Source: a virus
Lineage: Duplodnaviria > Heunggongvirae > Uroviricota > Caudoviricetes
Strand: one strand, 5' to 3'
DNA: 4,943 nucleotides
IMG/VR virus record: IMGVR_UViG_2700989508_000017
Shown here: positions 114-3,569 of the stretch, one piece after another
Numbering within the stretch: the first letter of the stretch is position 1
How the letters are laid out: each line of letters starts with the position of its first letter
Program-made: the position numbers and the translations under genes
Notes under the pieces: model-generated
The model's database searches: none
Seen by the model: the letters and a program-made list of their open reading frames with translations, nothing else
Told to the model about the DNA's origin: nothing

Positions 114-536
114 ATGTTTCTGAAAACAGAACAATTTGAATATAACGGTGTGTCCGTCACGCTTTCCGAATTGTCTGCGCTGCAGCGGTTTGATTATATA
201 AAGTTTGTTTCAGACGCAGAACAACAGGAGACAACGAAGCATGATGTCGTGCACATTAACCAGCGATATCTGGAAACGGCATCCCTGCTTGTGGCGATGT
301 CGCTATGGCATTCCCATTCCCTCAAAGGCACTCTGGCCTCTCCGGAGACAGAGATGCAGCAGATCCGCCGTGAAGTGATGCTGGGATGGCCTGCTGATGC
401 ACTGAATCAGGCAACGAACCGGGTGCTTTATCTTTCAGGTATGCTGGATAACCGGCACGATGCCGATCCTGAACAAACCGGGAAAGCAGAAGCGACTGAG
501 CCGGTAACATCAAAAAAGCATTCGAAGGCGAGCTGA
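114..536 (+). CDS. G: Tail assembly chaperone G (zero-frame product)
   Basis: 140-aa ORF with a strong SD. N-terminus MFLKTEQFEYNGVSVTLSELSALQR and internal LVAMSLWH closely resemble lambda gpG as I recall it. Position between V and the tape-measure gene is as in lambda. Stop TGA at 534-536. Confidence 0.93.
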   Translation: MFLKTEQFEYNGVSVTLSELSALQRFDYIKFVSDAEQQETTKHDVVHINQRYLETASLLVAMSLWHSHSLKGTLASPETEMQQIRREVMLGWPADALNQATNRVLYLSGMLDNRHDADPEQTGKAEATEPVTSKKHSKAS

Positions 537-976
537 ACTTTGTCCTGAAACTGGCGCGAGAGATGGGGAGACCCGACTGGCGCGCCATGCTTGCCGGGAT
601 GACATCCACCGAATATGCCGACTGGCGACGTTTTTACTGCACGCATTATTTTCAGGATACCCAACTGGACGCTCATTTTTCCGGGCTGATGTACGCCGTA
701 CTCAGCCTGTTTTTTGGCGATCCGGATATGCATCCGGCGGATTTCAGTCTGCTTGCTCCAGCGTGTGAGGAAGAGCAGACGGAGATGCCGGACGAGGAAG
801 AAATGCTGATGCAGAAAGCGACAGGAGTTGCCGGAGGCGTCCGGTTCGGAGGGGACGGAGGGCGCGATATTTCACCTTCTGCGGATGTGGTGGATGTCAG
901 CGAGGATGATGTTGCATTAATGATGGCTTCAGCGGGGATTTCCGGAGGTGTGAGATATGTCCCAGCCAGCGGGTGA
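114..976 (+). CDS. GT: Tail assembly chaperone G-T fusion, made by -1 frameshift at 512-518 (approx. join 114..518,518..976; about 287 aa)
   Basis: The -1 frame relative to G is open from 500 (after TGA at 497-499) to the stop at 974-976. The T-frame translation MGRPDWRAMLAGMTSTEYADWRRFYCTHYF...DPDMHPADFSLL...GGVRFG...GGVRY resembles lambda gpT. The frameshifted G-T arrangement is the conserved feature of tail chaperone genes upstream of tape-measure genes (Levin, Hendrix and Casjens 1993; Xu, Hendrix and Duda 2004). Confidence 0.88.
512..518 (+). promoter_or_regulatory. Programmed -1 ribosomal frameshift slippery heptamer A AAA AAG (G to G-T)
   Basis: In the G reading frame the codons are TCA AAA AAG (510-518), giving the canonical X XXY YYZ heptamer A AAA AAG at 512-518. 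The heptamer ends 15 nt (5 codons) before the G stop, the same position as lambda's G GGA AAG. After a -1 slip the frame reads KKAFEGELNFVLKLAREMGRPDW..., running into the T ORF and matching lambda gpT. Confidence 0.85.
944..948 (+). promoter_or_regulatory. Shine-Dalgarno (GGAGG) for H
   Basis: GGAGG at 944-948, 8 nt upstream of the ATG at 957. It sits inside the 3' end of the T reading frame. Confidence 0.6.
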
Positions 977-3569
977 TCTGGTTATTGATTTGAGTCTGGA
1001 TGCGGCCCGGTTTGATGAACAGATGGCCCGGGTACACCGTCATTTTTCCAGTCTGGAGGCGGATGCCAGAAAAACCGCCAGTACTGTTGAACAGGGGCTG
1101 AGCCGACAGGCGCTGGCTGCACAAAAAGCCGGGATATCAGTCGGACAGTATAAGGCTGCCATGCGCACACTGCCCGCACAGTTCACGGATATTGTCACTC
1201 AGCTTGCCGGTGGTCAGAATCCCTTCCTTATCATGCTGCAGCAGGGGGGGCAGATCAGCGATTCATTCGGTGGACCGCTCAGCCTGCTTACCCTGCTGAA
1301 GGAGGAACTTCTCGGGATCAGGGATGCCTCTGAATCATCAGAGGAGTCGCTGTCAGATACGGCAAATGCACTGGCTGAAAATGCCCGGAATGCCGGTGAG
1401 CTGGGACGATTTATGTCGGTGGCCCGTGTGGCGGCAGGTGGCGGGGTTGCCGTACTGGCCGCGCTTGCTGCCGCCGCCTGGCAGGCAGAGCAGGCTGACC
1501 GGGCCTTATTGCGTTCACTGATCCTGACCGGAGGGGCGGCTGCCACCACAACGGCAGAATTGTGGAAAATGGCCGGGGTGATCAGCGATGAAGCCGGTGG
1601 TGGTATCAGACAGGCGGCAGAAAATCTGGCCCGTCTGGCAGAAAGCGGGAAATATACCGCCGGGCAGCTACGGATCATGGGGGAAACCTCTCAGAGATGG
1701 CTGCAGACGGTGGGGGACGATGCCGGGAAGGTGGAAAAAGCCTTTGAAGGGATTGCAGCAGATCCGGTGAAGGCGCTGGCCTCCCTGAATCAGCAGTATA
1801 ACTTCCTGAGCGTTTCCCAGTTACGCCATATTGATGAGCTTGAGCGCACGAAAGGTAAACAGGCTGCGGTGACGGAGGCGATGTCCCTGTTTGCGGATGT
1901 CATGAATGCACGTCTGGAGCAACTTGATAAAGCGGCCACGCCGGTGGAAAAAATCTGGGACGATGTTAAAACCTGGACTTCTGACGCATGGGCATGGATA
2001 GGTGATCATACACTGGGGGCACTCAGTCTGATCACTGACGTGGTGGCCGGAACCGTTGAACAAGTGAAGCTGCTGCTTGTGCAGGGGGATCTGGCGCTGG
2101 CTGAATTTATTCAGTCAGCCTGGGAAACGACAAAGAATGTGCCCGGCGTTGGTGCGTTGTTTGGTGAACTGGCAGAAGAGAACCGCGTATTTATTGAGAA
2201 AACAAAACGCGATGAACTGGCGCTGAGAAAATCCATTGCGGAACGGGATGCGCGTATACGCCAGGGGGAAATGGGGTACATCAACCGCTCGCGTGCAACA
2301 GGCGTCAGCAAAGGTCCTGGGCAGCAGGAAGCCGTCAGCCGTCTGGCTGAAGAGCTGACAGGTAAAAAGCATACATCACCGAAAACGCGCTCTGCCGGGG
2401 AGAGGGAAGAGGAGCAGGCAAGAGAGGCTCTGCTTGCCCTTGAAGCTGAGCTCAGGACGCTGGAAAAACACAGCGGTGCGAATGAGAAAATCAGTCGGCA
2501 GCGCCGTGATTTATGGAAGGCGGAAAGTCAGTATGCGGTCCTGAAAGAGGCTGCCACGAAACGGCAGTTATCCTGGCAGGAAAAATCCCTGCTGGCCCAT
2601 GAGAAAGAGACGCTGGAGTACAAACGCCAGCTGGCTGACCTGGGCGACAAGGTTGAACACCAGAAACGCCTGAATGAGCTGGCACAGCAGGCGGTGCGGT
2701 TTGAAGAGCAGCAGAGCGCGAAGCAGGCCGCCATCAGCGCAAAAGCCCGCGGTCTCACTGACCGTCAGGCGCAGCGGGAGTCTGAAGCGCAGCGTCTTCG
2801 GGACGTGTACGGTGATAATCCGCAGGCGCTGGCCCGGGTCACTGGGGCACTGAAACAGACATGGGCGGATGAAGACATGCTGCGCGGTGACTGGCTGGCC
2901 GGGCTGAAGTCCGGCTGGGGGGAGTGGGCGGAAAGTGCGACGGACAGTTTTTCGCAGGTTAAAAGTGCTGCCACGCAGACCTTTGACGGTATTGCACAGA
3001 ATATGGCGGCGATGCTGACCGGTGCAGAGGCAGACTGGCGGGGATTCACCCGTTCGGTGCTGTCCATGATGACAGAAATCCTGCTTAAACAGGCCATGGT
3101 GGGCATTGTCGGGCGTATCGGCAGCGCCATTGGCGGTGCTTTCGGTGGTGGTGCATCTGCTTCCTCGGGGACGGCCATTGAGGCTGCGGCGGCGAACTTC
3201 CATTTCGCGACCGGAGGATTTACGGGGACGGGCGGCAAATATGAGCCTGCGGGGATAGTTCACCGCGGGGAGTTTGTTTTCACGAAAGAGGCAACCAGCC
3301 GGATAGGTGTGGGGAATCTTTACCGTCTGATGCGCGGCTATGCGGAAGGTGGTTATGTGGGTGGTGCCGGAAGTCCGGCGCAGATGCGGCGGGCGGAAGG
3401 TATTAATTTTAATCAGAACAATCACGTGGTGATTCAGAACGACGGTATCAACGGACAGGCGGGGCCGCAGCTGATGAAGGCGGTGTATGACATGGCCCGC
3501 AAGGGGGCGCAGGATGAGCTCCGGCTGCAGTTGCGTGATGGCGGTATGTTATCAGGGAGCGGGCGATGA
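957..3569 (+). CDS. H: Tail tape measure protein H
   Basis: 870-aa ORF (lambda gpH is 853 aa). N-terminus MSQPAGDLVIDLSLDAARFDEQMARVHRHF...ALAAQKAGISVGQYKAAMRTLPAQFTDIVTQLAGGQ and the C-terminal half (ALLALEAELRTLEKHSGANEKISRQRRDLWKAESQ ... NNHVVIQNDG ... AVYDMARKGAQDE) match lambda gpH as I recall it. Coiled-coil-like Ala/Glu/Gln/Arg/Lys-rich middle and Gly-rich hydrophobic C-terminal segment are typical of tape-measure proteins. Confidence 0.95.
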   Translation: MSQPAGDLVIDLSLDAARFDEQMARVHRHFSSLEADARKTASTVEQGLSRQALAAQKAGISVGQYKAAMRTLPAQFTDIVTQLAGGQNPFLIMLQQGGQISDSFGGPLSLLTLLKEELLGIRDASESSEESLSDTANALAENARNAGELGRFMSVARVAAGGGVAVLAALAAAAWQAEQADRALLRSLILTGGAAATTTAELWKMAGVISDEAGGGIRQAAENLARLAESGKYTAGQLRIMGETSQRWLQTVGDDAGKVEKAFEGIAADPVKALASLNQQYNFLSVSQLRHIDELERTKGKQAAVTEAMSLFADVMNARLEQLDKAATPVEKIWDDVKTWTSDAWAWIGDHTLGALSLITDVVAGTVEQVKLLLVQGDLALAEFIQSAWETTKNVPGVGALFGELAEENRVFIEKTKRDELALRKSIAERDARIRQGEMGYINRSRATGVSKGPGQQEAVSRLAEELTGKKHTSPKTRSAGEREEEQAREALLALEAELRTLEKHSGANEKISRQRRDLWKAESQYAVLKEAATKRQLSWQEKSLLAHEKETLEYKRQLADLGDKVEHQKRLNELAQQAVRFEEQQSAKQAAISAKARGLTDRQAQRESEAQRLRDVYGDNPQALARVTGALKQTWADEDMLRGDWLAGLKSGWGEWAESATDSFSQVKSAATQTFDGIAQNMAAMLTGAEADWRGFTRSVLSMMTEILLKQAMVGIVGRIGSAIGGAFGGGASASSGTAIEAAAANFHFATGGFTGTGGKYEPAGIVHRGEFVFTKEATSRIGVGNLYRLMRGYAEGGYVGGAGSPAQMRRAEGINFNQNNHVVIQNDGINGQAGPQLMKAVYDMARKGAQDELRLQLRDGGMLSGSGR

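Follow-up and report, generated by a model that had tools for sequence, protein, structure and literature searches.

A known system close to the one analysed here is the G/G-T pair of phage lambda, for which the -1 shift out of gene G is established (Levin, Hendrix & Casjens 1993). In lambda the frameshift amounts to ~4%, about 30:1 G:GT is needed (cited through Atkins 2016) and more frameshifting lowers the phage yield. Closer in sequence is the sister phage VT1-Sakai, for which AAAAAAG is named as the G-T site by Xu, Hendrix & Duda 2004, as cited in Lynch et al. 2012 (PMC3483164).

The window (the whole stretch of 4,943 nt of viral DNA that was analysed, IMG/VR record IMGVR_UViG_2700989508_000017) is a V-G-T-H-M-L-K tail module of a lambda-like, Stx-phage-type E. 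coli prophage. Its gene G contains A AAA AAG at positions 512-518, five codons ahead of the G stop, and we consider it very probable that a -1 slip at this heptamer yields the fusion protein GT, with G made in excess. The G-T site is thus correctly placed by the original prediction. It is also already known, having been catalogued for this phage group in 2004, and the novelty that the prediction implied is lost to the citation of AAAAAAG for VT1-Sakai from Xu et al. 2004.

The tail module and its relatives

The genes that frame the frameshift region, all on the + strand, are as follows.

1-100, + strand: 3' end of V, the major tail protein, with stop TAA at 98-100 (from VT1-Sakai and PGAP annotations of near-identical DNA)
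114-536, + strand: G, tail assembly chaperone, 140 aa, 15.85 kDa (ORF list; PF06894, TIGR01674)
518-976, + strand: T portion of GT, 152 aa, in the -1 frame, which is open from 500 and stops at TGA 974-976
957-3569, + strand: H, tail tape measure, 870 aa (ORF list; PF06791, PF09718)

G and T therefore occupy the lambda-type position, between V, which ends at 100, and H, which starts at 957. The end of T and the start of H overlap by 20 nt, and downstream of H the ORF list and profile searches place M, L and then the beginning of K. In megablast the window is 96-98% identical to Stx1a- and Stx2a-converting phages, CP-1639 and VT1-Sakai, with a value of 94-96% for VT1-Sakai DNA over the window, while nt 100-1000 match prophages of E. 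coli E2865 and 2013C_3964 at 100%. The module is widespread: searching with 91 nt around the slip site at an identity cut-off of at least 95%, we found the junction region in 644 of 5,426 complete E. coli genomes (about 12%), at 1,445 places. The carriers are mostly EHEC/STEC, and several copies per genome are common.

Two further observations concern the genes downstream of the shift. Positions 863-1083 of the window, covering the C-terminus of T and the N-terminus of H, are not alignable with VT1-Sakai, whereas identity in the flanks is 94-96%. In phages of the VT1-Sakai type T is shorter and H follows after a gap of 43 nt, while in the window T is lambda-like and overlaps H by the 20 nt mentioned above. 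This arrangement, together with the break in the alignment, places a mosaic junction inside T. In the E2865 prophage, which is otherwise 99.7% identical, the tape measure gene (L002:3858-6469) is annotated as a frameshifted pseudogene and has a 1-nt gap relative to window positions 957-3569; in the window H is intact at 870 aa.

The probable slip site in gene G

G is a homologue of gpG and matches PF06894 (E=6.5e-35) and the equivalog family TIGR01674 (E=5e-35; 120 bits against a cutoff of 74). A Shine-Dalgarno sequence, GGAGG at 103-107, can be read 6 nt before its start. The codons of G begin at positions divisible by 3, and the gene ends with GTA ACA TCA AAA AAG CAT TCG AAG GCG AGC TGA. In the -1 frame the scan finds stops at 470-472 and 497-499 and the next one only at 974-976, and G as a whole contains only two XXXYYYZ strings. 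The relevant elements are the following.

480-486, + strand: decoy GGGAAAG, in register GGG AAA G (judged by register, downstream -1 stop and poor conservation)
497-499, + strand: TGA, the last upstream stop in the -1 (T) frame (frame scan)
512-518, + strand: A AAA AAG, slippery heptamer of the programmed -1 frameshift (judged by register, lambda homology, conservation and the VT1-Sakai citation)

A AAA AAG 512-518 is the sole X XXY YYZ heptamer that is in register within the G/T overlap, and the frame scan bears out the prediction that no other in-register heptamer lies past TGA 497-499. AAAAAAG and GGGAAAG each occur once in the window, both strands having been searched. Shuffled sequences give an expectation of 0.55 AAAAAAG per window, so that the chance of an in-register copy within the ~12-codon overlap is ~5e-4, conservation aside. 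Ordinary E. coli genes strongly avoid AAAAAAG in phase, with z = -10.1 (Sharma et al. 2014, PMC4066793, Table S3). The 3' end of lambda G, GCG GGA AAG TGT TCG ACG GTG AGC TGA, aligns codon for codon with TCA AAA AAG CAT TCG AAG GCG AGC TGA of the window, and both heptamers are found 5 codons ahead of the G stop. The predicted homology with the lambda site thus holds at the level of single codons.

The same position is occupied throughout the family. Among 100 related loci surveyed, 32 carry A AAA AAG and 68 carry G GGA AAG, in every case 5 codons before the G stop. In the 32 same-lineage loci with A AAA AAG the heptamer is invariant (32/32), while neighbouring bases vary. It is also present in G lineages that are 86% (L106) and 46% (L102) identical, and the variant therefore spans more than one lineage. 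Across the family it is the A-site A AAG alone that is invariant. The fourfold-degenerate base just before the P-site codon changes together with that codon, being NCA (TCA or GCA) before AAA AAG and GCG before GGA AAG. Such tracking is exactly what a tandem slip demands and marks a need for re-pairing in the P site.

Departures from the two canonical forms were also noted. A divergent lineage of lambda-type G has the non-canonical G GAA AAG (GTG or GCG GAA AAG) exactly where the slip site lies, at L104:1893-1899, at L105:1893-1899 and in L110-L118 (about 695-701, ending 18 nt before the G stop). This form is not X XXY YYZ. Re-pairing of the P-site tRNA-Glu on GGA would have to involve a middle G.U. 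The form is apparently stable, the G protein of L104/L105 occurring on 7 contigs in addition to the nine IMG/VR loci. At L103:1308-1314 an otherwise A AAA AAG lineage shows A CAA AAG, on one metagenomic contig with a coverage of about 4.9, which reflects a sequencing error or else natural variation with only the A AAG tetramer preserved. Loci L085-L100 have the exact slip-site region of lambda on low-coverage contigs, several of them about 48.4-48.5 kb long, in assemblies labelled Neobacillus, Oceanobacillus, Kitasatospora, Shewanella, Leeuwenhoekiella, Enterococcus and others, which looks like lambda DNA contaminating those assemblies. These loci come from a scan of genome contigs, most of whose matches were such lambda DNA and which added little diversity.

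A speculative reading of this variation, to which we give a small chance, is that the orthologous slip site turns over among G GGA AAG, A AAA AAG and G GAA AAG and that the forms may differ measurably in the G:GT ratio that they set or in how far they depend on tRNA modification. With A AAA AAG, the tRNAs that slip are both the thiolated tRNA-Lys. If the idea were true, the prophage family would represent a natural allelic series relating P-site re-pairing to the frameshift rate and to tail assembly.

Proposed synthesis of the GT fusion

Joining 114-518 to 518-976 gives a GT of 135 + 152 = 287 aa and 31.93 kDa. The T frame encodes a gpT homologue, matching the equivalog family TIGR01715 with E=5.8e-60 and 200 bits (cutoff 77), and PF06223 also matches. 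How would the two reading frames be connected? In the mechanism that we favour, most ribosomes on G would stop at TGA 534-536 and release the 140-aa G protein. A minority, holding AAA 513-515 in the P site and AAG 516-518 in the A site, would slip back by 1 nt. Both codons are read by the single E. coli tRNA-Lys(mnm5s2UUU), which pairs worse with AAG than with AAA (Atkins 2016; Sharma et al. 2014, PMC4066793). The two tRNAs would then re-pair on AAA AAA 512-517, decoding would resume at GCA 518-520 and T-frame decoding up to TGA 974-976 would complete the 287-aa GT (...EPVTSKK-AFEGELNF...). The roles are those expected from homology with lambda: G, like the G part of GT, would coat the tape measure H, the T part would recruit V, and a large excess of G over GT would be needed.

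A tandem -1 slip of this kind leaves two lysines at the junction, which would read ...EPVTSKKAFEGELNF (also given as ...VTSKKAFEGELNF and ...TSKKAFEGELNF), and the junction peptide would be expected to contain KAFEGELNFVLK after ...EPVTSK. The junction proposed originally, VTSKK/KAFEGELNF, has three lysines if read literally, that is one too many, and needs to be amended.

Alternative routes to T

Three other ways of obtaining the T sequence have to be weighed against the slip at 512-518. The string GGGAAAG at 480-486 is identical to the heptamer of lambda, which is the only point in its favour. Its register in G is GGG AAA G, which is wrong for a tandem slip, and a -1 slip there would read AGC AGA AGC GAC TGA and end after 4 codons at 497-499. 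It is the reading frames that exclude this position. The string also decays in relatives (GGTAAAG in 8 loci, GGGAAAA in VT1-Sakai), as opposed to the invariance of 512-518, and ~1 copy per window is expected by chance. GGGAAAG 480-486 is therefore no functional shift site, and the likelihood that the shift occurs there is negligible; in preferring 512-518 over this string the original prediction was right. A change of frame might also arise before translation, if RNA polymerase added one A to the six at 512-517. Slippage at poly-A runs is known, and insertion of one A would give exactly ...SKKAFEGE..., so the junction peptide is the same by both routes. However, productive realignment has been reported for A runs >7, while the run here is 6, and at the same position the A runs of the orthologous sites G GGA AAG and G GAA AAG are just A3-A4. 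Moreover, the X XXY YYZ register and the tracking by the base at position 1 are demands of the ribosome, not of the polymerase, and we regard transcriptional slippage as extremely improbable.

The remaining route would dispense with frameshifting altogether, with T as an independent gene started at an ATG inside the T frame.

563-565, + strand: ATG used as the T start in database records (PGAP and GenBank)

A 137-aa ORF does open at this ATG, and T is called from it in the four annotated records inspected for this module (VT1-Sakai, ASU11, an Stx2a phage and the PGAP annotation of E2865). None of the four carries a slippage annotation. The RefSeq record of lambda itself is annotated without a join, however, so the absence of slippage annotation carries no information, and the same methionine exists in lambda (REMGRPDW), where the shift is established (Levin 1993). 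Upstream of ATG 563 we found no SD-like sequence or anti-SD complement, in contrast to the true starts in the operon, which have GGAGG 6-8 nt upstream (G at 103-107; H at 944-948, 8 nt). T homology extends beyond this ATG: the TIGR01715 match begins at T-frame residue 11, that is at nt 530, 33 nt upstream of ATG 563, and the T-frame peptide in this region is conserved, being AFEGELNFVLKLARE in the window and VFDGELSFALKLARE in lambda, as well as AYEGELNFALKLARE in L102 and VLASELKFVLRLARE in L104, which belong to divergent lineages. The family match and the conserved peptide thus reach 11-15 codons upstream, where there is no start codon, since the T frame, open over 500-976, lacks ATG, GTG and TTG in 500-562. 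ATG 563 is probably just an internal methionine of GT, and an independently started T is highly improbable. In practical terms, G and T are split in every record inspected, and none of these records therefore contains the 287-aa GT chaperone. As none of the four marks slippage at any position, the warning that a motif search would misplace the shift is hypothetical in practice.

Frameshift efficiency and the downstream region

With the slip at A AAA AAG 512-518 as the preferred reading, the question is how often it would happen. The original prediction expected a GT:G ratio above that of lambda, on the ground that the heptamer is of the dnaX type. The E. coli reporter measurements of Sharma et al. 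2014 cover all 64 heptamers in three contexts, namely with no stimulator, with IS911 stimulators and with the IS3 pseudoknot. In this order AAAAAAG gave 0.291 / 4.26 / 39.0% and GGGAAAG 0.277 / 3.80 / 43.0% (PMC4066793, Table S3), and C_CCA_AAG, G_GGA_AAG and A_AAA_AAG are grouped as the top three (Sharma et al. 2014, PMC4066793; Atkins 2016 agrees). A AAA AAG is thus indeed among the most efficient heptamers, as claimed, but it is not above G GGA AAG in these reporters, and with equal heptamer efficiencies the replacement of GGGAAAG by AAAAAAG predicts no change in rate. As either heptamer yields only ~0.3% in that reporter without a stimulator, the ~4% of lambda must depend on context.

The context in the window can be compared with that of lambda directly. 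Upstream of the heptamer there is no SD-like stimulator: the strongest anti-SD pairing in 485-511 reaches -3.1 kcal/mol (CGGUA), and this stretch has no GGAG-like element. A cmscan of 400-700 at E <= 10 gave no match to an Rfam frameshift element, only two chance matches to a snoRNA and a lncRNA. Downstream, the predicted fold contains one candidate.

527-595, + strand: candidate stem-loop with an outer stem, 527-533/589-595, and an inner hairpin, 552-587 (predicted fold)

This candidate starts 8 nt after the heptamer and has an MFE of -35.3 kcal/mol with z = -2.0. The same two-level stem-loop is predicted in lambda (z = -2.1), and the 100 nt downstream of the site are near-identical to those of lambda. 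Covariation in an 18-sequence alignment is not significant (term +0.24; 56/500 shuffles; 1 compensatory pair), and the outer stem of the candidate is disrupted in L106/L107. Window positions 552-595 and the homologous DNA of all related loci belong to the first ~80 nt of T past the G stop, which are near-invariant, synonymous sites included, and this holds even between lineages whose G proteins share only 45-50% identity. Such near-invariance of early T DNA reflects either a recent recombinational exchange of T or a constraint at the RNA level.

An efficiency like that of dnaX, in the tens of percent, would produce far more GT relative to G than in lambda. The identity of the heptamer with that of dnaX would be compatible with it, as would a moderately stable structure that can be drawn 8 nt downstream. 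The dnaX-type label, though, applies to the heptamer and not to its surroundings, in view of the missing upstream SD-like element and of the Rfam result. AAAAAAG equals GGGAAAG in the three contexts, and the downstream sequence and predicted fold are essentially those of lambda. Also, lambda needs the G:GT of about 30:1 quoted at the outset and surplus GT is harmful to it, while in an unrelated HK97-like tail-chaperone cluster, from among the clusters with A-rich heptamers, just 6-7% was measured. Frameshifting at the dnaX level is therefore very unlikely here, and the expectation of a GT:G ratio above that of lambda finds no support in the equal heptamer efficiencies and the lambda-like downstream region. 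We infer instead that the slip would take place at a few percent, as in lambda, because in E. coli neither heptamer is shiftier than the other and both phages have the downstream context in common.

Comparison with known systems

Biologically, the locus adds nothing new: it is a further case of the conserved frameshift in tail chaperones, with an already catalogued heptamer that has been measured to be as shifty as that of lambda. Among systems that use the same heptamer, one resides in the same strains, the HK97-like chaperone of the O157 prophage Sp9 (ECs1801), which also undergoes a -1 shift at A AAA AAG. At L101:25002-25681 (ECs1801/ECs1802) its downstream ORF is in the -1 frame, and this locus is cluster A_AAA_AAG_25 of Sharma 2014. 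We considered whether A_AAA_AAG_25 could be the gene described here and rejected this, as the Sp9 sequence encodes an unrelated 124-aa chaperone, with no detectable similarity to G (E = 1.2) and with a heptamer that abuts the stop codon (AGA AAA AAG TAG). ECs1801 sets a precedent for tail chaperones with this heptamer but none for the locus itself.

Elements of the IS3 family (IS911, IS2, IS150) similarly employ A AAA AAG to make a longer fusion from two overlapping ORFs, orfA and orfB, but these are unrelated transposases, and IS3-family sites have proven stem-loop or pseudoknot stimulators. In dnaX (tau/gamma) A AAA AAG is likewise in register and allows a tandem slip of tRNA-Lys. There, however, an upstream SD-like stimulator and a strong downstream hairpin are present, while the window has no SD and only a candidate structure; and dnaX shifts at about 50% into a shorter product, whereas the shift in the window would bypass a stop and extend the protein from 140 to 287 aa.

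The VT1-Sakai site is the same site in a sister phage, with identical heptamer and flanks, and differs from the window in having GGGAAAA at the decoy position and another T C-terminus and H N-terminus. Lambda G/G-T (Levin, Hendrix & Casjens 1993) is likewise close. The proteins are orthologues (G about 45% and T about 69% identical), the gene order V-G-T-H is shared, and the site falls on the identical codon. The A-site codon is the same too (AAG to AAA, tRNA-Lys), and downstream there is hardly any difference in the T sequence or in the fold predicted for it. The difference lies in positions 1-3 of the heptamer, GGG in lambda and AAA in the window. Consequently, the P-site tRNA is tRNA-Lys instead of tRNA-Gly, and lysine takes the place of glycine in both G and GT.
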